Under the pieces are notes generated by a model. It had not been told where the DNA came from, did no database searches, and was given only the letters and a program-made list of their open reading frames with translations. From Bacteroidales bacterium (GTDB lineage Bacteria > Bacteroidota > Bacteroidia > Bacteroidales > F082): 30,157 nt of DNA. Shown here piece after piece: positions 1,730 through 29,914 of this stretch (the first letter of the stretch is position 1; each line of letters starts with the position of its first letter). The position numbers and the translations under genes are program-made. The stretch covers positions 1 to 30,157 of the forward strand of contig DATCTB010000490.1 in assembly GCA_036568185.1 (NCBI GenBank). The letters are read 5' to 3'.

Positions 1730-2566
1730 TTAATTCAACTTCTGATAAATCCTTACATAATCTACCTCCATAGTCTGTGGAAATACTGATTCGTCTATCC
1801 CTTGAAGACTTCCCCAGGCTCCGCCGACAGCGAGGTTTAAAATGAGATAAAAAGGTTTATCATACGGCCATTTCGACTCTCCAAGGCCTTCATTTTGGTA
1901 TTCAAAAAAAAGGCTGTCGTTAACATATGCTTTCAATACTTCTGGGGTCCAATCTAAACTATAGGAGTGAAATTCCTGGTTAACCTCAGGGACAGAAATG
2001 ATGGCTGTTTGTTGTGTTTGCTTTTGCCATTGGTAATCTTTTGAATGAGCTGAAGCATGGATTACGCCCAAATCATGTCCAACATGTTCCATGATATCTA
2101 TTTCTCCAACATCAGGCCAGTTGCCATCACTATAAGACCATCCTCCGGGCATCATCCAGATGGCTGACCAGGTTCCTCGGCCATCAGGCAATTTGGCATT
2201 TACTTCAATTTTTCCATATTTCCAATCGGCTTTTGAAATCAACCTTGCTGAGCTATATTCTTTGTTTCCAATGTTCTCCTTATAAGCGACGATATATAAT
2301 TTCCCATTCTTTACATAAGCATTTTTTTCAATAGCTTCCGTGTAATATTGCGCTTCATTATTTCCCCATCCATCTTCGTTGCCTTCCGTGTCATATTTCC
2401 ACTTTGCGGAATCAGGCAATCCATTGTAATCGAATTCATCAGACCAGACTAATTTATATGCATCTTTACCAGGAGTGATCACTTTTTTATCAGAACCTCT
2501 GTTGCTGAATGTATCACAACTAGTGGCCAGTAAAAAGGAAATCATACTGATGAAAATGTATTTCAT
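1730..2566 (-). CDS. GH16 endo-beta-1,3-glucanase (laminarinase type), lipoprotein
   Basis: Lipobox LATSC; WSDEFD, GWGNNEAQYY, catalytic WPDVGEIDIMEHVG, LNLAVGGAWG, MEVDYVRIYQ. Confidence 0.92.
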   Translation of the reverse strand: MKYIFISMISFLLATSCDTFSNRGSDKKVITPGKDAYKLVWSDEFDYNGLPDSAKWKYDTEGNEDGWGNNEAQYYTEAIEKNAYVKNGKLYIVAYKENIGNKEYSSARLISKADWKYGKIEVNAKLPDGRGTWSAIWMMPGGWSYSDGNWPDVGEIDIMEHVGHDLGVIHASAHSKDYQWQKQTQQTAIISVPEVNQEFHSYSLDWTPEVLKAYVNDSLFFEYQNEGLGESKWPYDKPFYLILNLAVGGAWGSLQGIDESVFPQTMEVDYVRIYQKLN

Positions 2567-2617
2567 GGCTTCAATGAGTTCGTTACTTTAGTTACTAAAA
2601 ACTGACTGCTGATTGAA

Positions 2618-3949
2618 TTAATCCTGATATACACGCACCCAATCAACTACTAATGTTTGCGGGAATTCAGTAGTTCCATCAGGTGGGCCAGGCCAGTTTC
2701 CACCTACAGCCAGGTTCATAATGATGAAGAAGTTGTTTTGGAATTCACTCAACGCAACAGGAGTAATATCTGACGAGAAAAACTGGACATTATCTACATA
2801 AGCCCTTATTTGTTGATTATCCCAAACTACTGAAAAAATATGAAATTCATCTGCGAAAATCCCTGATGACAAGGTATAGCTCTCGCCATAATCAGCATTT
2901 TCCCCGTTGTTGTCCCAATGAAGTGTAGAGTAAACAGTTTTATCCCCATTAACACCACCAACCATTTCCATAATATCTATTTCGCCACATGCAGGCCAGC
3001 CAACGGAACCAAAATTGGCTCCGAGCATCCAAAATGCCGGCCACATTCCTTGTCCATAAGGCAATTTCATTTTGGCTTCAATTCTTCCGTATTTAAAATC
3101 AAATTTATTTTGCGTTGTGATTCGTGCTGATGTATAATTATACCCGCTAACAGTTTCTTCCCTTGCAGTTATTGTCAGAACACCATTATCAACCATGGCG
3201 TTACTTTCACTATCTGTATAATATTGGAGCTCATTGTTGCCCCAACCGCCACCTCCGGTCTCCATATTCCATTTCGCAGGATCAGGAAGTCCGGTATAAT
3301 TAAATTCATCAGACCAGATGAGTGTTGGGTCATAATCAGGGTCATCTTGTGTGATGCTTACCATTTGGGTATCGGAAAAATCCAGATCACCCTTTGATAC
3401 TATAAGTTCTATCTTGTAATCACCTGCAAAGGGAAAATATGCTTCATGAATTTTTTGATTCTCAACTTCTAAATTTCGGTATTTCCATTTGAATGAATCG
3501 TATTGGCCTGTTGAAGTATTTGTTAAAATGACAATATTTGGATTATCAGGGTCTATTTCAGCAGTAAATGAAACAGATACACTTAAGTCATTTTGGGCAA
3601 TATTGATGGTTTGAGTCTGCGTTTCATTCTCCCCGTAATAGTTAGTTAATCGCAATGAAACATCGTATGTTCCAGCCAAAGGATAATAAATTGTAAAACT
3701 TTCTTTTTGGTCAGTAGTTGTTTCTGTAATACCATTACCAAAATCCCATGTCATGAAATAATACTCTCCTGATGAAGTATTCACAAATTTTACATGATTG
3801 TCATCGATAAATGAATAGCTGAAACCGGGGGTAAATTCAGGGGCTTCATTTTTATTGCATCCTGATTGGACAAATAAAAAAGACATGATTAGGATTACCA
3901 GTAAATAGTTATAATTTCTTCTGGCTTTAATATTATTTTTCTGTTTCAT
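2618..3949 (-). CDS. PKD-PKD-GH16 endo-beta-1,3-glucanase, lipoprotein
   Basis: Lipobox VQSGC; two PKD-like repeats (WDFGNG...YPLAGTYDVSL; FPFAGDYKIEL); GH16 WPACGEIDIMEMVG and MNLAVGGNWPG. Confidence 0.92.
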   Translation of the reverse strand: MKQKNNIKARRNYNYLLVILIMSFLFVQSGCNKNEAPEFTPGFSYSFIDDNHVKFVNTSSGEYYFMTWDFGNGITETTTDQKESFTIYYPLAGTYDVSLRLTNYYGENETQTQTINIAQNDLSVSVSFTAEIDPDNPNIVILTNTSTGQYDSFKWKYRNLEVENQKIHEAYFPFAGDYKIELIVSKGDLDFSDTQMVSITQDDPDYDPTLIWSDEFNYTGLPDPAKWNMETGGGGWGNNELQYYTDSESNAMVDNGVLTITAREETVSGYNYTSARITTQNKFDFKYGRIEAKMKLPYGQGMWPAFWMLGANFGSVGWPACGEIDIMEMVGGVNGDKTVYSTLHWDNNGENADYGESYTLSSGIFADEFHIFSVVWDNQQIRAYVDNVQFFSSDITPVALSEFQNNFFIIMNLAVGGNWPGPPDGTTEFPQTLVVDWVRVYQD

Positions 3950-4090: not shown

Positions 4091-5029
4091 TTAAGGCACT
4101 GGTTTCACATTTGTAAAAGTATGATACCATGCAAAAAGTGGTTCATTGGCCTGAACCATGCGTACTTTTAAGAGGTTATCAGTAACCTCAATAATTTCAT
4201 ATTCGCTTGAACCAGCATAAAAACCCATAAATCCACCATCTGAGAAATTGATGGTTGTGCCCCTGTATCCACCATCTATTGTGGCAATTGAAGAAGACGG
4301 GCTAAAGTTTGCATTTTTAATACCTGCAATATCAAATGGGTAGCTGCCTTCCGCGCCTAAACCAAATTCTTCGGCATAAATTCCCTGTATAAATGCTTCA
4401 CCGCTAGGGTTTTTTTGTTCGAATTTCATGTTTCCATTATCATTGGTGAAGACTAGCTCACACTGATAGAGTGTAGATTCTATTTTCTCCCATGGAGCTG
4501 CCTGATACCATGCCGGCCATGTCCATGAACCTGGCTCATAATCATAATTATTAGGCCCTAAACCGAGATGTCCGGTTTGATCAGCTGCCCAGTACCATGA
4601 TTTTGATGTTCCACCTGTTAAAAACAGGAATGCTTCTTCATCGGAAAAACTACTGTATACTTCGATTTGTGCAGATTTGCTTGAGGAAATTCCACCTGTT
4701 CCAACTGCAAACACGGTTACGGTGAACGCATTTAGGCCATTTACCGAAAACACGTGAGTTGTAGTACCATCAGCAGCTATCTGGTTATCTTTTCCATCTC
4801 CAAATTCGAAATTGAATGTGATGGCATTATCTGCCGTTGCGGTAAAATTTACCTGGCCACTGCCGTCTCCATTTGGATTTGCTTCATCAGCACCAACTAT
4901 TTCATAAGATAGCGTTACGTTAGTGGGTGAAATTAATGCACCCATTTCGTAGTTATCTTTCTGGCAACCAGTAGTTGCTGTTAGCATTCCAATAGAAATA
5001 ATTAAAATATATTTTATACTTTTCATCAT
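4091..5029 (-). CDS. PKD-domain surface lipoprotein, putative glycan-binding protein (SGBP)
   Basis: Lipobox ATTGC followed by QKDNYE; PKD motif FEFGDG; Trp-rich C-terminal domain (SWYWAA..GHLGLGP, WTWPAWYQAAPWE, AWYHTF); no GH catalytic motif seen; lies downstream of susD. Confidence 0.75.
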   Translation of the reverse strand: MMKSIKYILIISIGMLTATTGCQKDNYEMGALISPTNVTLSYEIVGADEANPNGDGSGQVNFTATADNAITFNFEFGDGKDNQIAADGTTTHVFSVNGLNAFTVTVFAVGTGGISSSKSAQIEVYSSFSDEEAFLFLTGGTSKSWYWAADQTGHLGLGPNNYDYEPGSWTWPAWYQAAPWEKIESTLYQCELVFTNDNGNMKFEQKNPSGEAFIQGIYAEEFGLGAEGSYPFDIAGIKNANFSPSSSIATIDGGYRGTTINFSDGGFMGFYAGSSEYEIIEVTDNLLKVRMVQANEPLFAWYHTFTNVKPVP

Positions 5030-5040
5030 CTATATAATTT

Positions 5041-7116
5041 TTAATTTTTAACAAGTATAAATCTCCACCATCCGCCTCCTATATCAATATCAAGTGTCAT
5101 TTCTGAATTGTCATCCGAGAGCGTTATTAGATAGGTAATTGAAGGTGGAGCATCATCCGGTGTTGTAAGCTCACCTCCATTATATGCTTTTGGAATACCA
5201 AGATAAGAACCTGTTCCATTAAGTGTTACAGTACCTGCACCTTCATCAAAGGAATAAGTGGCCGGTATGGAACCGTCATGAGGCGCAACCGGTGTTCCGC
5301 AGGCATCGCTGCCACCCTGCCATCCTTCAATCCATGATTCGCTTTCCAGCACATTGCTGAATGAACCATCGGCACCAAAAACATAAAGATCATCATAGAA
5401 ACAATCTCTTAACAAAACACCGGCTTCGTCTATTGACCACCATGAAATATCTCCAAGTGCAGGGCCTACTCCAAGCGATCCAGCGATTGGAGCTACTTGC
5501 CATGTCCCTTCTAAAGGGGAAGGAGCAACAGCACCATCTCTAACCAGTATAAATCTCCACCATCCGCCGCCAATATTAATATCAACGGTCATTTCGGAAT
5601 CGTCGTCAGAAAATGTTATAAGATATGTAATGGAAGGTGGAGCATCATCTGGTGTTGTTAGTTCACCCCCGTTATATGCTTTTGGAATACCAAGATAAGA
5701 ACCTGTTCCATTAAGTGTTACAGTACCTGCACTTGCATCGTAGGTATAAGTAGCAGGATTAGATCCATCATGGGGTGCAACAGGTGTTCCGCAGGCATCG
5801 CTGCCACCTTGCCATCCTTCTATCCATGTTTCAGCTTCCAATACATTCGTAAACGAACCATCGGCACCAAACACATAGCGATCATCAAAATAACAATCCC
5901 TTAGTATGACACCGGCCTCGTCTATCGACCACCATGAAATGTCACCTTGTGCCGGACCTACGCCAAGTGAACCTGCAACCGGTGCTACTTTCCATGTTCC
6001 TGCTATTCCCGGGCTAGCTGAACCTGTAACTTGTTTTATATCATCAAAATAGTAAACTGAGCCATCGCCAGGATTACCAAAATCGAAGAATATTACTATT
6101 TTCTGATAGGTATTATTCACATCAATTGCGGAGAAATTAAAAGTCAACTCCTCCCATTCATTACTTACAGTTGTTAATGCGTCAACTTCCATTGCTATGT
6201 CGCTATTGTCAAGGTTTTCCACCTTTAACTTAACTGTTGCACCTGATTTAGGTGACCAGGTTTTTACTTTAAAAACTTTTTTAGCTGAGAAATCAATAGG
6301 ATTTCCAAGGGTTAAAAAGCTACCTCCCCAAACTTCAGCACCAGTAGGTTTGACAGATTGGGCAACTCTTGAACTTTGGTTAATTCCCGAGATATCAGGA
6401 TTGTCAATAACCGAAGAAGTTACGCTTCCGAAATCGGTGAACGCGTAATTTACTGTGAATGATTCAAAAGTTATTGGCAATAGAACTGGATCGGAAGCCG
6501 CTGTGATAGTGATTGTTTCACTGTATTCGGTTGTTTCTGCTCCGGCACTTTTTGCCACAACTTTTATTACATAATCGCCTGCTTCAGCATAAGTGTGCTG
6601 GACAACTTCGTCAGGTAAAGCATGCGCAGGTTCTTCATCAGGAACATCACCAAAATAAATATCCATTATTGTAGCATAATCAGCATATGCAGAAACGGAA
6701 ATGATTTTAGGATTTGTAGCATCTTGTTCAATAGTAACAACAAGGTTTTCAGGTGCTTTGAAAGTGATATTAATGTCTTTGTCAACCGAAGCTGTAAGCC
6801 CTGTAATACCTACAGCAGTTATGCCAACGGTATAGACTCCTTCAGTGTAAACATGTGTAATACTTTCGTTTAAACCATAAACAGTGGGTGTTTCATCCAG
6901 AACATCGCCAAAAGTGATTTTATACTGTGTTACTCCTTCTGCTGTTGGATAAATTGTAACAAGCCCTGAATTATCCTGTGTAACATCAAAGGTTGCATTC
7001 ACATTGGCAGGGGCGCTTACATTGTCCAATTCACTCAGATTATCTACATTCTTATTGCAAGAAATTGCAAATAATAGGATGAACAGAAATACGCTTATTT
7101 TTTTCAATTGATTCAT
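5041..7116 (-). CDS. Multimodular surface lipoprotein (SGBP-B/SusE-positioned): PKD x2, CBM-like beta-sandwich, two near-identical Trp-rich domains
   Basis: Lipobox FAISC; ITFGD and IYFGD PKD motifs; LPITFES...WEELTFNF...YYFDDI CBM-like module; duplicated 155-aa C-terminal domain; directly follows susD. Confidence 0.8.
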   Translation of the reverse strand: MNQLKKISVFLFILLFAISCNKNVDNLSELDNVSAPANVNATFDVTQDNSGLVTIYPTAEGVTQYKITFGDVLDETPTVYGLNESITHVYTEGVYTVGITAVGITGLTASVDKDINITFKAPENLVVTIEQDATNPKIISVSAYADYATIMDIYFGDVPDEEPAHALPDEVVQHTYAEAGDYVIKVVAKSAGAETTEYSETITITAASDPVLLPITFESFTVNYAFTDFGSVTSSVIDNPDISGINQSSRVAQSVKPTGAEVWGGSFLTLGNPIDFSAKKVFKVKTWSPKSGATVKLKVENLDNSDIAMEVDALTTVSNEWEELTFNFSAIDVNNTYQKIVIFFDFGNPGDGSVYYFDDIKQVTGSASPGIAGTWKVAPVAGSLGVGPAQGDISWWSIDEAGVILRDCYFDDRYVFGADGSFTNVLEAETWIEGWQGGSDACGTPVAPHDGSNPATYTYDASAGTVTLNGTGSYLGIPKAYNGGELTTPDDAPPSITYLITFSDDDSEMTVDINIGGGWWRFILVRDGAVAPSPLEGTWQVAPIAGSLGVGPALGDISWWSIDEAGVLLRDCFYDDLYVFGADGSFSNVLESESWIEGWQGGSDACGTPVAPHDGSIPATYSFDEGAGTVTLNGTGSYLGIPKAYNGGELTTPDDAPPSITYLITLSDDNSEMTLDIDIGGGWWRFILVKN
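5049..6002 (-). repeat. Intragenic tandem duplication, 492-bp period (copies ~5049-5510 and ~5541-6002)
   Basis: Protein copies differ at 21 of 155 residues by my manual alignment. 5180-5240 is identical to 5672-5732 (61 nt). Confidence 0.95.
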
Positions 7117-7134: not shown

Positions 7135-8628
7135 TTAATAATTAGGATTTTGAGTCCAGTTTCCGGCAGAAAAATCAATTTCTTCCAATGGTACCGGAAA
7201 AACTTCATTTTTACCTGCAACAAATCCATCAATTTGGTTAGCTGCTCTGCCAGTCCTCACCAGGTCAAAGAAATGAATTCCTTCACCCATCAATTCAACC
7301 CTACGTTCATGATAAATTGCATCGGTAAGTGCAGCGCCTGTTAAAGTAACATCATGATTTGAATCTCCAAACGCTCTTCTTCTTACTTCGTTAAGATATT
7401 CCTGGGCTTTTGCATCTGAGATTCCTCCAACATTATACGCTTCAGCAGCCATCAGTAAAACATCAGAATACCTGATAGCCCTGTAATTATTTGGATTTGT
7501 CAAGTTCAAATCATTTTGCGCATTAGGACCTCTCTTACGTGGAATATACTTTCTGTTGAAATATCCTGTGTGCTCGTTACCAGTAGTATATTCTGCACCA
7601 GTAGTGTCAGCCCAGGTAACAATATCCAGGATAGTTACATTTTTGCGCTGATCGCCAGCTTCAAATTGATCAACTGCTTCCTGAACAGGGACGTTGAAGC
7701 TAAAACCAGGCGAAAATAAGGGGCCTGTATAACCTCTAACACCGCTAAAGCCAACTGCTACATTTCCTTCGCTACATTGCAGGCAGCCAAATCCGGCACC
7801 TTCAGCTTCAGAATACTGTACTTCGAAAACAGAGCCTGGCCCGTTCTCACCTTCCTGTTCAAAAATTGAGTTGTAATCTGAAACCAGGTAATAAGAGCCA
7901 GAGCTTATTACCTCATCAAGAGCATTTGCAGCTTCTGCATATTTTTTCTGGTATAAATAAGCTTTTCCCAGCAAAGCCAACGCAGCTCCTCTTGTTGCTC
8001 TGCCAGCTTCGGTTTGTGTTTCGGGCAATAATTCAGCGGCAAGGATTAAATCTTGTTCTATAAATGCATAAACCTCAGGTACCGAATATCTTGGAATTGT
8101 TTTTTCGTCACCCAGCTGAAATCTTTCATTATTTTTAATCGGAATCGGGCCAAACCATTTTACTAGTTCAAAGTTGTAATAAGCACGCAGGAACCTTACT
8201 TCACCAATCATTTGGTCTTTTCCTTCGAAATCTATTTTATCCCTGAATTCCATAAAATAGTTAGTGCGCTGTACACCGGCAAACATCCAGTTCCAAATAT
8301 CACTGAGGTTACTGTTTGTAGGTGTTTGTGTCATATCATCAACTTGTTGCCACCCGATTACATCCGTAGGGCTTTCGCCGCCACATAATGTATTGTTTGA
8401 AGCAATTTCGCCAAGTATTACATTTTGGTAACTTGACTGCAACATATCGTAAGATGCAACAAGCGCCATATAATAATCAGATTCTGAGTTGAAATAATTT
8501 TCCGAGTCAATAGAATACTCCGGGGAAAGTTCGGTAAAGTTGCTGCAGGAAAATGTAAACAGTAAAACTGTAATAAATACTGCAATTTTCGATTTTTGTA
8601 ACATATCTTTTTTCATTTTTCTTTTCAT
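7135..8628 (-). CDS. susD: SusD/RagB family glycan-binding lipoprotein
   Basis: Lipobox FTFSC; GEVRFLRAYYNFELVKWFG, IRYSDVLLMAAEA, ERRVELMGEG..FFDLVR, WTQNPNY. The start is probably 8628 (overlapping the susC stop) or 8616/8604, not 8655. Confidence 0.95.
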   Translation of the reverse strand: MKRKMKKDMLQKSKIAVFITVLLFTFSCSNFTELSPEYSIDSENYFNSESDYYMALVASYDMLQSSYQNVILGEIASNNTLCGGESPTDVIGWQQVDDMTQTPTNSNLSDIWNWMFAGVQRTNYFMEFRDKIDFEGKDQMIGEVRFLRAYYNFELVKWFGPIPIKNNERFQLGDEKTIPRYSVPEVYAFIEQDLILAAELLPETQTEAGRATRGAALALLGKAYLYQKKYAEAANALDEVISSGSYYLVSDYNSIFEQEGENGPGSVFEVQYSEAEGAGFGCLQCSEGNVAVGFSGVRGYTGPLFSPGFSFNVPVQEAVDQFEAGDQRKNVTILDIVTWADTTGAEYTTGNEHTGYFNRKYIPRKRGPNAQNDLNLTNPNNYRAIRYSDVLLMAAEAYNVGGISDAKAQEYLNEVRRRAFGDSNHDVTLTGAALTDAIYHERRVELMGEGIHFFDLVRTGRAANQIDGFVAGKNEVFPVPLEEIDFSAGNWTQNPNY

Positions 8629-11600
8629 TAAAGTTTTAAGGTAAATCCTAACCAATATACCCTGGCAGCAGGGTAAAACCCTGAATCAAAGCCAGAACCG
8701 ATGGGTGCACCACTTGAGGCTGCCGGATCAAATCCCATATAATTAGTGAATGTGTAGAGGTTGTTAATTGCAAAGTAGAATCTAAGCTCTTTAACCTTTG
8801 ATTTCATTACATGTTCAGGAATGGTATATCCCAAAGAAACCCTTTGAAGCCTCAGATAGGAACCATCTTCAACGTAATAATCTGAAAACACATTATTCGC
8901 TGTTGCAGCTGTAGTAAGCCTGGGCACCGTATTGCTTGTTCCTGGACCGGTCCATCTGTCAAGCGTGTACGACATACGGTTTACGTTTGGCTGCACTCTT
9001 TCATAATTTCTGACAATATCATTACCGATACTGGTAATTGTATAGAGTAAAAAATCAAACCCTTTATAGTTTAAGGTAACATTCAAACCCATATAAAATT
9101 CTGGAATTGGGTCTCCAATATACGTTCTGTCATCTGAATTGAGAACACCATCACCGTTTACATCAACAAACCTGATGTCGCCCGGGCTGGCAGGTGCACC
9201 CAATGCAGATTGCGATGGGTGGGCATCCACTTCTTCCTGAGTTTGGAAAATTCCGTCAGTTTTGTATCCATAAAAATAACCTATCGGGAATCCAACCTCC
9301 ATGCGGGCTGGCAATGGCTGGCCAACTCCAAAACTACCACCTTCAATGTAACCGGTACCATTATCTACCGCGAGCACTTCATTGTCGATGAAAGTAAAAT
9401 TGTAATTAATGCCATAAGTTAACTTATCCGGATCGCCTCCGCGAAAACCAATTGCAAACTCAAAGCCTTGATTTCTGACCGTCCCCGCATTAATAGTTGG
9501 GCCACTTGCTCCGGGCGCCGAGGTACCGAGAATACCCGAAACAGGCACACTGCTTATTAATAGGTCATTGGTTGTTTTCATAAAATAATCTGACGTGATG
9601 TCCAGCCTGTTTCCAAAGAATGAAAGATCAAAACCAACATCAAATTGCTCAGACTGTTCCCACCTGATTCCAGGATTGGGTAATTTGCCAATAGCGGTTC
9701 CGCTGGTGAGTGTTCCATTCAGAACATACATGGCCTCACCATTAAGCAAAGAAATATATCCATAATCAGGAATTTTATCAGAACCCAGGTAACCGTAGCT
9801 CATCCTAATCTTGATCAAATCTACTTTTTCGGCATTTGCCATGAAATTTTCCTTTGAAATAATCCATCCTGCTGTAGCTGAAGGGAAATATGCTGCTGCA
9901 TTGTCGGGGCCAAATTTTGTAGAGGCATCCCTTCTAAACATAGCTGACACCAAATATTTTCCCTGGTAATCATATTGTGCTCTGATAAAATAAGACAACC
10001 TGCGCTGTTCATAAACCCATGAACCGGCTGTCTTTGACTCGCTCAGACCATTGGCCAGGCTGATATCTGCGTATTCCCATGAATTATTAGGAATGTCGTA
10101 GCCTGTTCCGTTTAAGTTATTGCCCCAAGTTTGGTAAATTGTAGTTCCAAGGGTTCCTGTTAAATGATGAGCTTTATTCCAGGTGTTGTCATAGCCAACA
10201 AAAAAGTCAGCTGTATAATCATTATAATTATCCTTGCTTTGATAAACACTGCTCCTGGTTACATCAAAAACTTTCCCGCCATAATCAACTATCATAGAAA
10301 AAGATTTGTAGTTGGTATTGGCAGTATTGAAACCAGCACGGGCTGTTGCGCTCCAGTGTTTTGCGAAACTGGCAGTTAAACCAAGGTTACCGTTCCACTT
10401 GCTCAAATTATAATCATTATAGGTATTCGCAAGTTGTTGAAGCGGATTGATAATTTCAATACCCAGGTTTTGGGGTGCAAGAAAATAATCTCCGTTTTGG
10501 TCATATATTGGAACCGTGGACGGTATATTTACCGCGTTAAACAACACTGAACCCAGACCAAAATCATTGAATGTAGTACGATCCAAATAGGTGTACATTA
10601 TAGAAGAGTTAAATTTGAGCCATTTGGTAAAGTCAGCTCCCATACTTAAGTTTACATTGGTCCTGCCATATTCGGAATTGTCACCTCCAATAATCCCCTG
10701 TTGTCTAACATCAGAAATGCCAAACGAATAACTCATTTTTTCAGATCCGCCGGAAATACTAAAATTATTATCAAAAATAGGAGCTGTTGAAAATAACTCA
10801 TCCTGCCAGTCGGTTCCTTCTCCCAGGTTTGAAACATCGGGATAAGGAAGTTCCTGTCCATTTGCGGCATAGCTTTCATTTAATAAAATGGCATATTCGG
10901 TTGAATTAAGCACCGGCAAGGTTCTGGTAGTTTGCTGCAAACCAAAGTTGCTGTTGAAACTAACAGTGGTGGGTGTATTTCTTTTACCTGTTTTTGTTGT
11001 AATAAGAATGATACCATTTGCACCTACAGTTCCATAAATAGCTGCCTGAGCATCCTTCAAAACAGTAATGGTTTCAATATCATTGGGATTCAAAGTATTC
11101 AAATCGCCCTGATATCCGTCAATAATAACAACTGGGGAAGCATCTCCATTGGTTGAAATACCCCTGATGCGAATGTCCAACCCGGCACCAGGTGAACCTG
11201 ATTGCTCGGTAACCTGCACACCCGTCATGGTTCCTTGTAGTGCTTGCTCTACTTTGACAGGTTTTAGGTTGTTAATTGTTTTCGTGTCAACGGTAGAAAC
11301 GGCTCCTGTTAAATCTATTTTTTTAACAGTTCCATAACCAATAACAACAACTTCGTCTAATTGAGAAACATCAGATTTCATTTGAATGTTGATGACACTT
11401 TGGTCTCCAACAACCACCTCAATCGTTTGCATACCAATAAAAGAAAAAACGACTACTGAAGTTGGTGAAACATTTTGCAACTGGTATTTTCCATCAATAT
11501 CAGTCACAGTACCTGTTGTAGTACCTTTTACCAAAACTGTAACACCGGGAATAGATAACTTATCATCAGCAGACGTAACAACTCCTGATATCGTTTTATC

Positions 11601-11666
11601 CTGGGCAATCATGGCGATAGGTATGAAAAACAGTAAAAAAATAAAAAACGAATAAACTTTTTTCAT
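8628..11666 (-). CDS. susC: SusC/RagA family TonB-dependent transporter
   Basis: Signal peptide MKKVYSFFIFLLFFIPIAMIA (ATG 11666 preferred over TTG 11717); IPGVTVLVKGTTTGTVTDIDG, LDEVVVIGYG, DIETITVLKDAQAAIYG, GANGIILITTK, C-terminal YPAARVYWLGFTLKL. Confidence 0.97.
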   Translation of the reverse strand: MKKVYSFFIFLLFFIPIAMIAQDKTISGVVTSADDKLSIPGVTVLVKGTTTGTVTDIDGKYQLQNVSPTSVVVFSFIGMQTIEVVVGDQSVINIQMKSDVSQLDEVVVIGYGTVKKIDLTGAVSTVDTKTINNLKPVKVEQALQGTMTGVQVTEQSGSPGAGLDIRIRGISTNGDASPVVIIDGYQGDLNTLNPNDIETITVLKDAQAAIYGTVGANGIILITTKTGKRNTPTTVSFNSNFGLQQTTRTLPVLNSTEYAILLNESYAANGQELPYPDVSNLGEGTDWQDELFSTAPIFDNNFSISGGSEKMSYSFGISDVRQQGIIGGDNSEYGRTNVNLSMGADFTKWLKFNSSIMYTYLDRTTFNDFGLGSVLFNAVNIPSTVPIYDQNGDYFLAPQNLGIEIINPLQQLANTYNDYNLSKWNGNLGLTASFAKHWSATARAGFNTANTNYKSFSMIVDYGGKVFDVTRSSVYQSKDNYNDYTADFFVGYDNTWNKAHHLTGTLGTTIYQTWGNNLNGTGYDIPNNSWEYADISLANGLSESKTAGSWVYEQRRLSYFIRAQYDYQGKYLVSAMFRRDASTKFGPDNAAAYFPSATAGWIISKENFMANAEKVDLIKIRMSYGYLGSDKIPDYGYISLLNGEAMYVLNGTLTSGTAIGKLPNPGIRWEQSEQFDVGFDLSFFGNRLDITSDYFMKTTNDLLISSVPVSGILGTSAPGASGPTINAGTVRNQGFEFAIGFRGGDPDKLTYGINYNFTFIDNEVLAVDNGTGYIEGGSFGVGQPLPARMEVGFPIGYFYGYKTDGIFQTQEEVDAHPSQSALGAPASPGDIRFVDVNGDGVLNSDDRTYIGDPIPEFYMGLNVTLNYKGFDFLLYTITSIGNDIVRNYERVQPNVNRMSYTLDRWTGPGTSNTVPRLTTAATANNVFSDYYVEDGSYLRLQRVSLGYTIPEHVMKSKVKELRFYFAINNLYTFTNYMGFDPAASSGAPIGSGFDSGFYPAARVYWLGFTLKL

Positions 11667-11740
11667 AATGGGTATTTTGTGTGTAAACAATTTTTTTAGA
11701 AACCTTTTGGATTGCAACTTGCGTGCCGTTTAAATTTTAC

Positions 11741-11773
11741 CAAAAATAAGAACTGATAAAGGTGAAAGTCAAT
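11741..11773 (-). promoter_or_regulatory. Candidate Bacteroidota sigma-A promoter for susC
   Basis: Minus-strand TATTTTTG (11748-11741) matches the -7 TAnnTTTG consensus, with (A)TTG 21 nt upstream (11773-11770). A second TAnnTTTG lies at 11794-11787, so the assignment is not unique. Confidence 0.5.
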
Positions 11774-11780
11774 ATTTTAT

Positions 11781-11831
11781 GCACATCAAAAATACTTCAA
11801 TAGTCATGCATTACTACATCATTACTACGTC
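11781..11831 (-). promoter_or_regulatory. Phased 11-bp direct-repeat array, candidate operator of the upstream regulator
   Basis: Minus strand reads GACGTAG-taat-GATGTAG-taat-GCATGAC-tatt-GAAGTAT-tttt-GATGTGC. The core is a tandem CATTACTACRT at 11809-11830. Confidence 0.6.
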
Positions 11832-11923
11832 AAATAAAATCTATATAACTGAATACCAGGTTTATAAATTTTAATTTTTTACCTGCTCACTTGCAGTAAA
11901 TAATAAACTCGGAATGAAGAAGC

Positions 11924-14806
11924 TTAAAAGGAAATAATAAAGTCGGTTAAGTTGATGTCAGATGTTAAATTTAGTTTTTTTCTTAGTCTGTACCTGCTTA
12001 TTTCAACACCACGAATGGAAATGTTCATCAGCGTGGCAATTTCTTTACTCGATATGTTCATGCGCAAATAGGCACATAATTTTAATTCCCGGGGAGATAA
12101 GGAAGGATATTCTGATTTAATGCTGTTTAAGAATTCTTCATGAACTTTTACAAATTGGGTTTCAAAAACTTTCCATTGGTTCTCATTTTCAATTTCTTTG
12201 TTAATTTTCCTCACTAAATGATGAGATTGATGTTTATGTCCTTCATCGTTTGATGATGCAGAAAGTTTTTTCAATTCATCACGCAAAGTCATCAGCATCT
12301 CATTTTTATGAAGTGTTTGCATAGTAGCGTTGGCCAGTTCTTTGTCTTTTTGTAACATCTCGGCGCGCAGTTTATCATTCCTCAGTTTAATAACTTCCTT
12401 TTCTGCAAGCAAAGCTTCGTTCAGCAATCGCCTTTCGCGTTCTTTATATAAGCGTTCTTGCTTTTCTTTTTCGCGGTTTTTCAAAACACCAATTCTATAT
12501 TTAATTATTCTGAAAAATAATGCAAGAATTATTATAAAAACCAATGCATAAAACAAAAAAGCAACCCAGCTAAGATACCAAGGTGGCAAAATGGAAAATT
12601 CTAACTGGCAAACTTCAGACTCAACATCATAAATATTTCGGGCTTTTACTTTGAATAAATAATTTCCATGCCGGAGGTTAGTGAATTCTCTGTATTCACG
12701 TTTTTCCCAGCGTGTCCAATCTTCGTCATAACCTTCAAGAAAAGTTGAAAACAATAACTCATCAGCATTCTCAAAATCGTTGGCGGAATATGAAAATTGT
12801 AATCCATTGTAATCATAAGGAATCTTATCAGGAATGCTGGCTTTCTCCACTTTCTCTCCAAAATAAATAATTGAGTCGGCACCAGACAGTGTGACTTCTC
12901 TGATATAAGTGTTAAACTCGAATTGATAATTTTTTGGATACTTTGGTAGATAATGTGCAAACCCATTCTGGGTACCAAATAGTACGTTTTCGCTATTGAT
13001 GGAATATACAAACTGGAAACCTTTTATAAACATATCATCAAGCTGCCTGAAGGGTATGACTAAATCAAAATAACTGCCGTCTTCTTGTTTTTTTAATACA
13101 CCTGCTTTGCTGTTGGCAAAATACCAGATATTTTCCTCACCATCTTCATAAATTGCGGTTGGTTTACGGTTTTTGAATAAAGTATTTATTTCATCAGAAT
13201 ACTCTATTCTGTTTGTTTTACTATTAAACACATATATACCTTCGCTGGTTGTGAAAATCGGCTTTCCCCTGAATTCAAATACGTTGATGCCAAAATTGTT
13301 CGGAAAACCTTGTTCTGAATTATAAAATTTGACCATTATCGCGCTGTCAAGTTTTTCATCCAAACTAACTTTAAAAACGCCTTTGTAACCGTGACTAATC
13401 CATATCTCTTTGTCTAAGCCATTCTCAATGAACCGCGAAGATTCATCAAATCCTTTTATTTTATTCTGAAAAACCCAATTATCATTAATTCTTTTATAAG
13501 CCAATAAGCCGGAATAGGTTCCTTCAATTAATATGTCATCATAACCATTAAGTTTTAAAAAACTCCACCCGCCCGGCTCACTTGATATTCTCTTCGCTTG
13601 AAAGCCTCTAATCGAAAATGTGCCTGAATTATGACCGCACAACAGTTCACCATCCACAACCTGGAGTTTCCATACTTGCCCCTGTGTTTGTGGAATAAGT
13701 TGAAATTTATTATCAGAACCGTTTTGCAAATCAATCCAGGGCTTAGCAAAAACACCCTGGTTTGTACCAAGATAGAGTATTCCTTCGTACAGGACTGCCG
13801 CATAACCGGCGCTAATGCCTTCAGAATAGGAAAAGAATGAAAGCGGAGAATTAATTTCTATATAATCAATTCCATTATCGAGTCCAAGCCATAGATTTCC
13901 GTATTGATCAATGTTTAAACACAATACTGTATTGTTTTGCAAACCATTCTGACGATTGATTTGTTGAAGTATTACACCTGCAGTATCACATATTAACAAC
14001 CCATTTTGTACTGTGCCAAAAGCATATTTTGTGGCGTTTATTTCAATGCAGCAAAAAGCCTGGTTATCAATTAAAAACTGGTTGGCTGAGTTCTTCCATG
14101 CCGTTAATGCTATTCCATTATATTCAAAAACTCCTTTTTCGGCAGTAATAATTATAAGGTTTTCCTTTTTTTGGAGAATATTAATAATGAGTTCTCCTTT
14201 TAGGCTTTCCGTTCCCGGAACTTTTACAAGATGATTTCTGTACAACTTAAACAGGCCGTCGCGCAAATCATTAACAAAAATTTCACCATTTACCGAAAAC
14301 GAAAAATGAAATTTAGATGGGGCAGGAATGACATTAATAGTATCACCAGCATATATCATGAGTTGTTCATAAGACTGGAAAACAACCCCTTGCGACAAAA
14401 TAAAAATTCTCCATACTTCATCAAAATCTCTGTAATCCACTGGAACCTTATCCTGCAATTGAACGTAATTAAGCTTACCATTAATGTCGTGTAAAAAGTA
14501 GCCAAACTCATTAAATGCTCCTACATATATCTTGCCTTCATCGCTCACTTTTACACTCCGCACACCTGAACCTGAATTGACCGGATAAGTTATCCAATTT
14601 TTTCCGTCAAATTCGAGCAAACCATCATTGTTGGCAAAATAAACTATACCCTTGTTACTGACATCTATCATCCACGATTGCATGCCGGCTTCATATTCCA
14701 AATTTGAGTAGTTTTTTATCTGGGGTTTACCAATGCCGTTTAAGTCTGCAAATCCTAAATTGCAATTTACTATTAGAAAGAAAATTAAAACATTTCTTAA
14801 CGACAT
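11924..14806 (-). CDS. Membrane-spanning one-component regulator: periplasmic beta-propeller + Y_Y_Y domain + TM helix + LuxR/GerE-type HTH
   Basis: Signal peptide; propeller repeats (VYFANNDGLLEFDG, LWLGLDNGIDY); YTFLEGYDEDW/FTNLRHGNYLFKVKA-type Y_Y_Y region; TM PPWYLSWVAFLFYALVFIIILALFF; coiled coil; LSPRELKLCAYLRMNISSKEIA..MNISIRGVEISRYRLRKKL. No HisKA, HATPase or receiver motifs seen. Confidence 0.9.
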   Translation of the reverse strand: MSLRNVLIFFLIVNCNLGFADLNGIGKPQIKNYSNLEYEAGMQSWMIDVSNKGIVYFANNDGLLEFDGKNWITYPVNSGSGVRSVKVSDEGKIYVGAFNEFGYFLHDINGKLNYVQLQDKVPVDYRDFDEVWRIFILSQGVVFQSYEQLMIYAGDTINVIPAPSKFHFSFSVNGEIFVNDLRDGLFKLYRNHLVKVPGTESLKGELIINILQKKENLIIITAEKGVFEYNGIALTAWKNSANQFLIDNQAFCCIEINATKYAFGTVQNGLLICDTAGVILQQINRQNGLQNNTVLCLNIDQYGNLWLGLDNGIDYIEINSPLSFFSYSEGISAGYAAVLYEGILYLGTNQGVFAKPWIDLQNGSDNKFQLIPQTQGQVWKLQVVDGELLCGHNSGTFSIRGFQAKRISSEPGGWSFLKLNGYDDILIEGTYSGLLAYKRINDNWVFQNKIKGFDESSRFIENGLDKEIWISHGYKGVFKVSLDEKLDSAIMVKFYNSEQGFPNNFGINVFEFRGKPIFTTSEGIYVFNSKTNRIEYSDEINTLFKNRKPTAIYEDGEENIWYFANSKAGVLKKQEDGSYFDLVIPFRQLDDMFIKGFQFVYSINSENVLFGTQNGFAHYLPKYPKNYQFEFNTYIREVTLSGADSIIYFGEKVEKASIPDKIPYDYNGLQFSYSANDFENADELLFSTFLEGYDEDWTRWEKREYREFTNLRHGNYLFKVKARNIYDVESEVCQLEFSILPPWYLSWVAFLFYALVFIIILALFFRIIKYRIGVLKNREKEKQERLYKERERRLLNEALLAEKEVIKLRNDKLRAEMLQKDKELANATMQTLHKNEMLMTLRDELKKLSASSNDEGHKHQSHHLVRKINKEIENENQWKVFETQFVKVHEEFLNSIKSEYPSLSPRELKLCAYLRMNISSKEIATLMNISIRGVEISRYRLRKKLNLTSDINLTDFIISF

Positions 14807-14860
14807 TTATCAGAGTTTTAAATACTGATTTTAAGAACTATTAAAACTAAATGATCTCCA

Positions 14861-14868
14861 CAAAGTTA
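14861..14868 (-). promoter_or_regulatory. Candidate -7 promoter element for the regulator gene
   Basis: Minus-strand TAACTTTG matches TAnnTTTG, 55 nt upstream of the ATG at 14806. Confidence 0.45.
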
Positions 14869-15019
14869 GAAATTAGAATCATTTATTTAAATTAGAAAAT
14901 TATTTGGCCTAAACTTTTTTACTAAGGAAAAAGCATTAATTCATCCCTTGGCCTGCCAGCAATCAGAAAAGAACTGCAAAACTGGGCACCAATCTTTAAC
15001 AAATAAATATAAACTCATT

Positions 15020-15054
15020 CTTTCTCCTTTTGTCTTTTTACTTTTGTCTTTCAA
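15020..15054. repeat. Degenerate 7-bp tandem array (5 units)
   Basis: ctttctc-cttttgt-cttttta-cttttgt-ctttcaa, intergenic. Confidence 0.6.
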
Positions 15055-15118
15055 AGTTTTCCAATTGAGTAAATTGGTTTCAGCATGGAAATAACAAGCA
15101 ATTGCAAACTAACTAAAA

Positions 15119-15148
15119 CAAAAAAAACCCCGCAAAACTGCGGGGTTT
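15119..15148 (-). terminator. Rho-independent terminator of tRNA-Phe
   Basis: Stem aaaccccgca (15125-15134) / tgcggggttt (15139-15148), 4-nt loop, U-tract on the minus strand (forward A-run to ~15120). Confidence 0.9.
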
Positions 15149-15163
15149 CATTTTAAAATCAAG

Positions 15164-15236
15164 TGGTACCAGCCGGGATCGAACCAGCGACACATGGATT
15201 TTCAGTCCATTGCTCTACCTACTGAGCTATGGTACC
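15164..15236 (-). tRNA. tRNA-Phe (GAA)
   Basis: GGTACCATAGCTCAGTAGGTAGAGCAATGGACTGAAAATCCATGTGTCGCTGGTTCGATCCCGGCTGGTACCA folds as a 73-nt cloverleaf with anticodon loop CTGAAAA. CCA is not encoded. Confidence 0.98.
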
Positions 15237-15252
15237 TCGATTTTTCGGATTG

Positions 15253-15260
15253 CAAAAATA
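15253..15260 (-). promoter_or_regulatory. Candidate -7 element of the tRNA-Phe promoter
   Basis: Minus-strand TATTTTTG, 16 nt upstream of the tRNA 5' end. Confidence 0.6.
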
Positions 15261-15321
15261 AACTTTTTTTTATACTCTCATAAAAATTCTTAAAAACTTC
15301 GGAGCTTCTCTCTTAGAAGCC

Positions 15322-15329
15322 TATTTTTG
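15322..15329 (+). promoter_or_regulatory. Candidate -7 element of the coaX operon promoter
   Basis: TATTTTTG 24 nt upstream of the coaX ATG, divergent from the tRNA promoter. Confidence 0.55.
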
Positions 15330-15353
15330 CTGACAACAAAGTAATGGTACCAT

Positions 15354-26812: not shown

Positions 26813-29800
26813 ATGAAAAAAATCTACTTAACATTCGCAAGTATGCTCATTGTCTGCTTAGCTTTTTTGCAACAAGGCAATTTGTTCGCGCAACAAAATG
26901 GATTTTCGGGTAAGCAAAAAACTTCGAACGCCAATCAGAGTTTTACTCCTGAAAATCTTTTTAAAATCGGAAATTCTGAAAGAGCCGAATCTGAAAGAAT
27001 TGCCTCAGCCGAAAGCCTGGCCTACAATTCCATTCCCTTTTTTAAACCAAACAGCATTGATGGAAACAACTATTCTTCTTTGAAATATGCTGCCAACAGC
27101 CAGTTGATTTTTGCCGAAAACAAATCAGGAAGCGGTGTTTCTTATGAGTCAAGGTCTCAAGAAAACATCTCGGAAGCTTGTTATATGTACCTGGATCAAC
27201 TTGCCAAAGCAATTTATATTGAAAACCCTTCCGAAGAATTTAAGGTGATTGAAACTAAGGAAGATAATTTAGGTTTTATTCATATAAAAATGCAGCAGTA
27301 TTTTGAAGAAATTACGGTGTATGGCGGCCAGGTAGTTTTACACGGGAGCAATGGTATGCTGAATACTTTTAATGGAAATTGCTTTCCAACTCCCAAATTA
27401 TCATCGCTTACACCCGAAATTTCTACAGAACAAGCAGTTGAAATAGTTCGTGCCGATGTAAGCCAGCATTCACAAATGAAAGACCTGACAGAAAATGAAA
27501 AATTTATTTTGAATTATTCGAATCCTGTTCCTGAACTGGTTATATATCATAACCGGCTGCAATTGAATGCCGAGAAGTTGGTTTGGCATATCACCTTCAG
27601 GCCGAATTTTCTTGCTCGATGGGAATATTTTGTTGATGCCATTTCGGGTGAAATCATCAATAAATATGACAACACCTGCACCGATGGCCCGGCAACAGCC
27701 CAAGCTGTTGACCTGAACGGAGTAAGCCGCTCAATTGACACATATTTATCAGGAGGTAAATATTACATGATCGATGCTTCGCGCCCGATGTTCAATTCGG
27801 GGCAATCACAAATGCCTGATAAACCGGTCGGAGCCATCTGGACTATTGACGCCAATAATACAAGCGGCCAGAATATTAGCCTGTTTCATATTACATCGAA
27901 CAACAACCAGTGGAATAACCCAACCGGTGTTTCGGCACATTACAATGCCGGTGTTACTTATGAATATTTTAAAAATGTGCATAACCGCAATTCGATAAAC
28001 GATAAGGGAGGAACAATTATTTCCATTATAAACGTGGCTGACGATAATGGCGGCGGTATGGATAATGCATACTGGAATGGTGAAGCCATGTTTTATGGAA
28101 ATGGCGACCAGGCCTTTAAGCCTTTGGCTGGTGGGCTCGATGTAGGCGCCCACGAAATGACACATGGTGTAGTTCAAAACACTGCCAACCTGGAGTATCA
28201 ATATGAATCTGGAGCAATCAATGAGGCAATGGCCGATATAGCAGGTTGCATGGTTGACCGCCAGGACTGGAAATTAGGCGAAGATGTTATTCCTGCCGGA
28301 AGCCCTTATTTTCCTTCGGGCGCACTACGCGACATGCAAAATCCCCACAACGGCGGAACCAGCTTGAACGACAATGGATACCAACCCATGCACATGAGTG
28401 AAAAATACAATGGCTCTGATGACAACGGCGGAGTACACATCAATAGCGGAATTATAAACCATGCCTATTATTTACTGGCTGAAAGCATTTCAAAAGACAA
28501 AGCAGAAAAACTTTTTTACCGAGCCCTGGCCAATTATATGACCAAAAGTTCACAATTCATTGACTGCCGCCTTGCTTTTGAACAATCGGCAAAAGACCTT
28601 TATGGAGCTGGCTCAAATGAATACAATGCAGTAGTAACAGCATTTTACTCGGTTGGAATTGGAGAAAATACTGGTGGTGGTGGTGGAAGCGCACCTCCCG
28701 GTGAATTGCCTGTTAATCCAGGTCAGGACTATATTGTTAGCTATGATGTAAATCCTGCAGACCCAAACACTTTGTATATTTCGAGCACTCAAGGTGATAA
28801 TTTTGTGCCGATTAGCGAAACAAAAATGAAAGGCAAACTTAGTGCTACCGACGATGGTTCTTTTGCACTATTTATCAGCGAATCAGACGAAATGAGGTAT
28901 ATCGAACTGCAGGCACCCTACAATGAAGACAAACTTTCCTCACAATTGATTTGGGATAATGTTGCCATTTCGAAAGATGGCAACCGCATTGCTGCTATTA
29001 CAACTGAAATAGATTCCGCAATCTGGGTGTATGATTATAACACAGAAGTCTGGGCAAAATACCATTTGTACAACCCAACTTTTACCCCAGGCGTTGTTAC
29101 CGAAAATGTTTTGTATGCCGACCAGATTGAATGGGACTACTCAGGAGAATACCTGATTTATGATGCATATAATGAAATGGAAAACAGCAGTGGCGAAAAT
29201 ATTGATTACTGGGATATGGGTCTGATAAGGGTATGGAACAAAGCCGCTAACAGCTGGGGCGATGGGCAGATTTTCAAGATTTTTTCAAACCTGCCTGAAG
29301 GAATTAGTGTTGGCAACCCAAGCCTTTCCAAAAATTCGCCTTACATCATGGCATTTGATTATCTTGACAGCAATACCGGAGAAATGGATGTGCTGGCGGC
29401 CAATCTTGAAACCGGCGATATTGGGACTATTTTTGAAGGCAATTTAGTACTCGGTTATCCTAATTATTCGAAAGAGGACAATAAAATTGTTTTCAGTGCC
29501 CAAGACACTCAAAATAATGAGGTTGTAGCTGAAATACCTCTTAAAATAAATAAAATTGAACCCAATGGTAGTGCTACCATTTTAATTGGCGATGCCAAAT
29601 GGCCCATCTGGTATTCAACCGGAATTCGCGATTTATCAGATGTTGAAGATCAATTAGCTGAAAATATTTTCACAAACGCTTACCCCAACCCTTTCAGCGA
29701 TGAACTAACGGTTGTAATAAATGGAAAATCAAATGCAGATTATCGCATTGAAGTCTATAATATGTATGGGCAGCTCGTAAGCCAGAAATCAGGCATATCT

Positions 29801-29914
29801 GCAGAATCATTTACAAAAACGAATTTTACTTTAAGCCAATTGGCAAAAGGAACTTATGTTGTAAAAGTTTTTGTTGGAAATAAAGTTAGCAGCCTGAAGG
29901 TGGTGAAGAGTTGA
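26813..29914 (+). CDS. M4 (thermolysin/bacillolysin) zinc metalloprotease preproprotein with TolB-like propeller and T9SS C-terminal sorting domain
   Basis: Signal peptide; FTP/PepSY-like propeptide (HIKMQQYFEEITVYGGQ, WEYFVDAISGEII); NAYWNG, AHEMTHGV, SGAINEAMAD, DNGGVHINSG; Gly linker; PD40-like repeats; YPNPFSDE...IEVYNMYGQLV...KGTYVVKV...KVVK. Confidence 0.95.
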   Translation: MKKIYLTFASMLIVCLAFLQQGNLFAQQNGFSGKQKTSNANQSFTPENLFKIGNSERAESERIASAESLAYNSIPFFKPNSIDGNNYSSLKYAANSQLIFAENKSGSGVSYESRSQENISEACYMYLDQLAKAIYIENPSEEFKVIETKEDNLGFIHIKMQQYFEEITVYGGQVVLHGSNGMLNTFNGNCFPTPKLSSLTPEISTEQAVEIVRADVSQHSQMKDLTENEKFILNYSNPVPELVIYHNRLQLNAEKLVWHITFRPNFLARWEYFVDAISGEIINKYDNTCTDGPATAQAVDLNGVSRSIDTYLSGGKYYMIDASRPMFNSGQSQMPDKPVGAIWTIDANNTSGQNISLFHITSNNNQWNNPTGVSAHYNAGVTYEYFKNVHNRNSINDKGGTIISIINVADDNGGGMDNAYWNGEAMFYGNGDQAFKPLAGGLDVGAHEMTHGVVQNTANLEYQYESGAINEAMADIAGCMVDRQDWKLGEDVIPAGSPYFPSGALRDMQNPHNGGTSLNDNGYQPMHMSEKYNGSDDNGGVHINSGIINHAYYLLAESISKDKAEKLFYRALANYMTKSSQFIDCRLAFEQSAKDLYGAGSNEYNAVVTAFYSVGIGENTGGGGGSAPPGELPVNPGQDYIVSYDVNPADPNTLYISSTQGDNFVPISETKMKGKLSATDDGSFALFISESDEMRYIELQAPYNEDKLSSQLIWDNVAISKDGNRIAAITTEIDSAIWVYDYNTEVWAKYHLYNPTFTPGVVTENVLYADQIEWDYSGEYLIYDAYNEMENSSGENIDYWDMGLIRVWNKAANSWGDGQIFKIFSNLPEGISVGNPSLSKNSPYIMAFDYLDSNTGEMDVLAANLETGDIGTIFEGNLVLGYPNYSKEDNKIVFSAQDTQNNEVVAEIPLKINKIEPNGSATILIGDAKWPIWYSTGIRDLSDVEDQLAENIFTNAYPNPFSDELTVVINGKSNADYRIEVYNMYGQLVSQKSGISAESFTKTNFTLSQLAKGTYVVKVFVGNKVSSLKVVKS

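Follow-up and report, generated by a model that had tools for sequence, protein, structure and literature searches.

The beta-glucan utilization regulator BguR has been described from Formosa agariphila KMM3901, in which deletion of the regulator abolished growth on laminarin and led to the loss of the 70-110-fold PUL induction, with no derepression (bioRxiv 10.64898/2026.01.10.698779). In the same work an XSTREME motif (E 2.4e-85) was located between the BguR gene and the first PUL gene, with the logo given as a figure (Fig. 3C) and the letters of the motif in neither the text nor the supplement, and SusR was named as the only comparable PUL regulator (bioRxiv 10.64898/2026.01.10.698779). The statement in the initial annotation that the Y_Y_Y-LuxR class has no well-defined operator is thus dated, as a predicted motif has been reported. 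Since both the regulator class and its predicted motif are already in this 2026 preprint, the locus studied here, which lies in a 30,157-nt window (the whole stretch of DNA that was analysed), adds one more example to a known kind of system. What is new here is a proposed operator consensus for the Bacteroidales branch, the 2 + 2 layout of its boxes, their distance to a -33/-7 promoter, a predicted regulon of one operon and a candidate recognition code. Laminarin is among the largest bioavailable glycan pools, and the switching of its uptake in Bacteroidota is only now being worked out.

BguR resembles the protein encoded in the window in having a signal peptide, propellers, a Y_Y_Y domain, one transmembrane (TM) helix, a helical linker and a GerE HTH with no phosphorelay domains, and in both cases the regulator gene immediately precedes the SusC/D pair in a PUL for laminarin that encodes GH16 and GH149. 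The deletion primer of the preprint and the sequences 3' of the regulator genes in the flavobacterial clade share the 14-nt word CACCCATACATTAC, a loose link that places the characterised BguR most likely in the flavobacterial clade and not in that of the window. The window regulator is ~32% identical to that clade, with full-length identities of 31-33% to 28 Flavobacteriaceae homologs (~940 aa). The hosts differ too, BguR being from Formosa agariphila and the window from a Bacteroidales metagenome-assembled genome (MAG) of a soil/sediment metagenome, whose closest named relatives are Lentimicrobiaceae MAGs. The putative operators are distinct in both letters and layout: the window carries four direct boxes of the type GATGTA, whereas the flavobacterial clade features one proximal pair of the type TGTAT-N6-TGTwG, accompanied in ~10 of 33 loci by an inverted pair adjoining the stop codon.

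Several other regulators share part of this design. The operators of Bacteroides HTCS regulators (e.g., BT1754 and BT4663) are predicted as direct repeats, and these proteins are similar to the window regulator in the periplasmic Reg_prop/Y_Y_Y sensor, the single TM helix and the local control of a single PUL. They differ in carrying HisKA, HATPase, receiver and AraC-type output domains, in place of which only a LuxR-type HTH was detected by Pfam in the window regulator. MalT of E. coli, with a LuxR-family HTH and several asymmetric direct-repeat boxes just 5' of the promoter of a glucan-utilisation operon, matches the window regulator by description in its HTH type and in having direct-repeat boxes upstream of the promoter, while it is a soluble ATP-dependent STAND protein with another box sequence and spacing. 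Short direct repeats spaced by roughly one helical turn make up the ToxR sites. ToxR/CadC and SusR are single membrane-spanning polypeptides that bind promoter DNA directly, as would the window regulator, although ToxR/CadC possess an N-terminal winged helix and type II topology rather than a C-terminal LuxR-type HTH.

The regulator gene (11924-14806, minus strand; Pfam and hydrophobicity scan) encodes 960 aa. A hydrophobic, signal-peptide-like segment at the N-terminus (hydrophobicity scan) is followed by Reg_prop propeller repeats (E 1e-5) and a Y_Y_Y domain at residues 677-739 (E 1.5e-9), both assigned by Pfam. Right after Y_Y_Y lies one TM helix (~745-768), which is the strongest hydrophobic 19-mer of the protein in a hydropathy scan, used in place of a dedicated topology predictor, and a K/E-rich linker leads from it to a C-terminal GerE/LuxR HTH (902-955, E 8e-8; Pfam) that aligns to EL222, EsrB, ComA and FixJ. 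HisKA, HATPase_c, Response_reg and AraC-type domains were not found by Pfam at E <= 0.001, GerE being the only domain in the cytoplasmic part. Judged by this domain order, the predicted protein is a BguR-type membrane-spanning one-component regulator, probably an activator.

The regulator adjoins a beta-glucan PUL, with SusC, SusD, two GH16 and GH149 encoded directly downstream on the minus strand. After a 257-nt intergenic region, the first operon gene encodes a susC-like TonB-dependent transporter (8628-11666, ATG at 11666; Pfam), followed by a susD-like gene (7135-8655; Pfam) and the genes of two PKD-domain proteins (4091-7116; weak Pfam PKD matches), which are likely surface glycan binders. 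Two GH16 genes of the laminarinase family (1730-3949; Pfam) precede the N-terminal part of a GH149-type beta-1,3-oligosaccharide phosphorylase (3-1598; phmmer against PDB 6hq6, E 6e-173), the gene of which leaves the window. This gene content indicates that the operon is a laminarin-type PUL. The 691-aa PKD gene contains a 492-bp tandem duplication (5049-6005, 1.9 copies, 83% identity), so that the putative surface glycan binder would feature two modules of 164 aa that arose by recent duplication. Housekeeping genes occupy the plus-strand half of the window. A metallopeptidase of the M4 (thermolysin-like) type (26813-29914, 1033 aa), which bears a C-terminal T9SS sorting domain, is unrelated to the PUL.

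For the DNA upstream of susC, the initial annotation reported five phased 7-nt words, and re-reading of the minus strand from 11831 to 11781 reproduced them exactly as GACGTAG (11831-11825), GATGTAG (11820-11814), GCATGAC (11809-11803), GAAGTAT (11798-11792) and GATGTGC (11787-11781), each step being exactly 11 bp. Four of them stood as boxes and one did not. The distal pair comprises box 1, TGACGTAG (11825-11832), and box 2, TGATGTAG (11814-11821), 11 bp after it; the proximal pair comprises box 3, TGAAGTAT (11792-11799), and box 4, TGATGTGC (11781-11788), located 33 and 44 bp after box 1, respectively. The spacer slot between the pairs (11800-11813), which includes GCATGAC, is unconserved, with ~0-0.2 bits per column across 30 loci, and GCATGAC, earlier counted as a box, was rejected because slot 3 carries no information in the aligned loci. 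The unit is consequently two pairs of direct repeats three helical turns apart, that is, a 2 + 2 array of TGATGTA-like repeats (slots 1, 2, 4 and 5) in an 11-bp register with 33 bp between the pairs, all on the minus strand.

Tandem Repeats Finder recovered the first pair as a period-11 repeat (11809-11832), and exact matches to the 11-mer GAYGTAGTAAT are confined in the window to the two first-pair sites; when two mismatches were allowed, 18 window matches were obtained against 12.7 expected, i.e., no enrichment. The motif had been described as missing from the other intergenic regions of the PUL, and this holds for both single-pair matrices run over the whole window. Neither gave a further window position above 14 bits, nor one in a PUL intergenic gap, and an autoregulatory site 5' of the regulator gene (14807-15353) was likewise not found by the pair matrices. 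Single-pair matrices are unspecific, with many coding matches of 14-22 bits, and only the four-box profile discriminates.

The array ends, as had been proposed, ~8 bp before a plausible promoter of the Bacteroidota -33/-7 type, for which a consensus is established. On the minus strand, box 4 is followed after 8 bp by a candidate -33 element TTG (11772-11770) and then by a candidate -7 element TATTTTTG (11748-11741), which fits the Bacteroidota TAnnTTTG consensus; counted from the start of box 4, the two lie at 15 and 39 nt, respectively. This geometry recurs in related loci: measured from where the last box begins, 11 of 29 aligned loci have TTG at +15 and 17 of 29 a TAnnTTTG-like -7 word at +38/+39 (+39 in the window), and the distance from box 1 to the ATG is ~160-167 nt in many loci and 165 nt in the window. 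A terminator 3' of the regulator gene was not found in a scan paired with a sigma-70 search, which is uninformative for Bacteroidota promoters. The boxes stop upstream of the -33 element with no overlap of the core promoter, and relative to the start, which is predicted near 11737 and so ~4 nt beyond the -7 box, they lie at roughly -94 to -44, an activator position abutting the -33 element.

Quite probably the array functions as an operator for the adjacent BguR-type regulator and serves to activate the susC operon. By analogy with BguR we infer that the regulator would be an activator responding to beta-1,3-glucan. The periplasmic propeller/Y_Y_Y sensor would detect beta-1,3-glucan oligosaccharides, and four HTH domains, probably those of two dimers joined through coiled-coil linkers and tethered to the inner membrane, would occupy about one face of the DNA in head-to-tail order between ~-94 and -44. 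The promoter-proximal protomers would then bring RNA polymerase to the -33 element or stabilise it there and switch on one operon with susC, susD, two PKD genes, two GH16 genes and GH149. Activation of the PUL by the adjacent regulator through these boxes had been put forward at the outset, and it gains support from the position 5' of the -33 element together with the genetics of the F. agariphila homolog, on which the analogy depends.

The same protein could instead bind these boxes chiefly to repress, or could have an architectural or anti-activation function there, given that activation in the window organism is argued from position and analogy and that an extra palindrome near the promoter in some related loci (see below) hints at added control. 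We regard such a role as unlikely, because the boxes end 5' of the -33 element and leave the core promoter free, and because the F. agariphila homolog is needed for induction and its deletion caused no derepression.

Whether the array accompanies orthologous regulators was assessed with two sets of loci. Set 1, obtained by a whole-genome protein search of 40 relatives, provided 14 loci at 36-49% identity, and set 2, obtained by scanning GTDB species genomes with a peptide pattern, provided 80 loci, including Lentimicrobiaceae, Prolixibacteraceae, Marinifilum, Labilibaculum, Draconibacterium, Mariniphaga, Saprospiraceae, Cytophagales and Flavobacteriaceae. Words were counted with no prior motif in 67 regions reaching from the regulator stop to the next same-strand gene, with shuffles as the expectation. 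The top 6-mer was GATGTA, present in 58 of the 67 regions against 7 expected, related genomes being non-independent samples. The conservation next to orthologous Y_Y_Y-LuxR genes that the initial annotation had set as a test is therefore present. GATGTA was strand-specific (the reverse strand lacked it in 62 of 67 regions), and box-to-box spacings peaked at 11, 22, 33 and 44 bp with 75, 36, 47 and 24 pairs, compared with ~0.9 per spacing in shuffles. Alignment on slots 0/11/33/44 revealed TGATGTA in slots 1, 2, 4 and 5, with a T-rich spacer of 4 nt behind each box. The array is kept across dozens of genera and several families and orders of Bacteroidota, in flanks that are otherwise unalignable. 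In divergent PULs the site is found on the strand opposite to the regulator gene and 5' of it (L106 with 44 bits; pairs in L097, L099 and L113).

At the genome scale the array is unique. A 59-column weight matrix derived from 30 loci, the window being left out, gave the window site 44.3 bits, and the next best position on both strands of the 3.3-Mb assembly (82% complete) scored 10.6 bits; a chance origin of the array is excluded. A sequence-only profile from 34 sites, again with the window site left out, was then run over 41 whole genomes of relatives. Sites of at least 30 bits were found in 11 of the 15 genomes with a regulator ortholog and in none of the 26 without, the maximum among the latter being 17.6 bits; seven of the 11 strong matches are training-set sites, and the window site is outside the training set. 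Three sites that did not belong to the training set were inspected: that of G003 precedes SusC-SusD, that of G024 PKD-GH16-SusC, and that of G032 a SusC-like gene truncated at the end of its contig. The sites of G003 and G024 are ~10-11 kb from regulator genes whose own flanks have no site, which supports the view that the array is tied to the regulator gene and not merely to its neighbourhood. Target PULs would thus be assignable even where the regulator gene is 10 kb off, and the practical value of the finding lies in regulon prediction and in the design of binding experiments.

The letters of the boxes were further compared with the recognition helix of the regulators in three clades, the varying residues being in the third helix of the HTH according to the alignment to EL222, EsrB and ComA. 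In the main clade, the helix ...VEI(S/G/C)RYR goes with GATGTA boxes. The retrieval pattern of set 2 contained the recognition helix, so the uniformity of the main-clade helix is partly by construction; the 14 loci of set 1, which were selected with no helix pattern, have the same helix. Paralogs with ...VEEKRYR (~30% identity) go with a GAAGTA-N8-GA(A/T)GTA pair in a 14-bp register in six of six loci (L021, L114, L115, L117, L119 and L121), two of which (L117 and L121) carry an extra upstream GATGAG pair; this paralog clade may correspond to the beta-1,2-glucan branch of the preprint. Flavobacteriaceae regulators with ...SVE(I/V)KRYR (~32% identity), drawn from 150 Flavobacteriaceae genomes, go with TGTAT-N6-TGTwG (wTGTATrTTTTTTGTwGwGG), detected in 24 of 28 loci by best match and in 13 of 33 by a strict pattern. 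An exact GATGTA-N5-GATGTA pair was found in none of the 45 loci fetched for the paralog and flavobacterial comparisons. These comparisons support a change of box letters together with the recognition helix across the three clades, and because the box letters track the helix, DNA binding and specificity swaps are directly testable. Assignment of the boxes to the adjacent regulator, as originally suggested, is backed by four features of the sequences, namely ortholog co-occurrence, the 11-bp register, the fixed promoter distance and the covariation of helix and box.

These results bear on the possibility that the array is a real cis-element bound by a different, unlinked factor, e.g., an OmpR/PhoB-type response regulator. 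Direct repeats at 11 bp are more typical of winged-helix OmpR/PhoB regulators, while LuxR-type HTHs mostly bind inverted repeats, and hexamer direct repeats in this register are classical for winged-helix response regulators. No such regulator gene is present in the window, however, the sites are found only in genomes with a Y_Y_Y-LuxR ortholog, the box sequence follows the Y_Y_Y-LuxR recognition helix, and the single strong site per genome argues against a global factor, so that an unlinked factor appears unlikely. That the phased words are a functionless product of chance in AT-rich DNA or of a recent local duplication, to which the near-perfect 11-bp tandem duplication of boxes 1 and 2 and the unenriched two-mismatch 11-mer could point, has a negligible probability in view of the gap between 44.3 bits and the genome maximum of 10.6 bits, the conservation in dozens of genera with unalignable flanks and the fixed promoter distance.

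Beyond the reading of the array as the activating operator of the adjacent regulator, a broader proposal can be made with clear reserve and is, on balance, rather doubtful: in this family the recognition code may be readable and the promoter geometry fixed, and the 2 + 2 array would reflect the ligand-driven assembly of two membrane-tethered dimers. Two helix residues may set the box letters in such a code, where I936/S937 of the window regulator may specify GATGTA, E-K of the paralogs GAAGTA or GATGAG, and I/V-K together with G933S in Flavobacteriaceae TGTAT/TGTwG. If this is true, the target operon of any Bacteroidota propeller-LuxR regulator would be predictable from sequence, and a 2 + 2 same-face array would mean that the DNA is held at the membrane during dimer assembly.

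Additional elements were observed in the leaders and related loci. A 12-bp palindrome, GCAAWCGWTTGC, which is LacI-operator-like, is exemplified by L005, L006, L013, L045 and L047 of the main clade and by L021, L114, L117, L119 and L121 of the paralogs. It lies between or just after the boxes in six of 12 paralog loci and in seven of 93 main-clade loci (0.5 expected), and it may represent a second control layer; in the window the palindrome is absent, with only GCAAGTTGC at 11714-11722. Seven Flavobacteriaceae loci (L130, L135, L140, L145, L146, L153 and L154) feature an inverted box pair (CAACATTACCyATACA-like) that directly follows the regulator stop, within 50 nt of it. The direct pair near the promoter is ~130 bp further downstream. 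For the inverted pair a role in DNA looping or read-through control is conceivable. L009 and L044 possess, besides the downstream array, a second clean box pair on the opposite strand, ~134 nt 5' of the regulator gene and pointing away from it, suggesting a second, divergent target promoter. Finally, many orthologous loci share an AACCAwwTCTAAAA-like leader word, ~25-45 nt 5' of the start codon of susC, which reads CCAAAAGGTTTCTAAAAAAA in the window (11691-11710, minus strand), with matching but loosely conserved leaders in L046, L050, L051, L054, L056, L061 and L108. This word may be a translation-initiation or leader-RNA signal, and CCAAAA, GAAACC and AACCAA were also enriched in the word count of the 67 regions.
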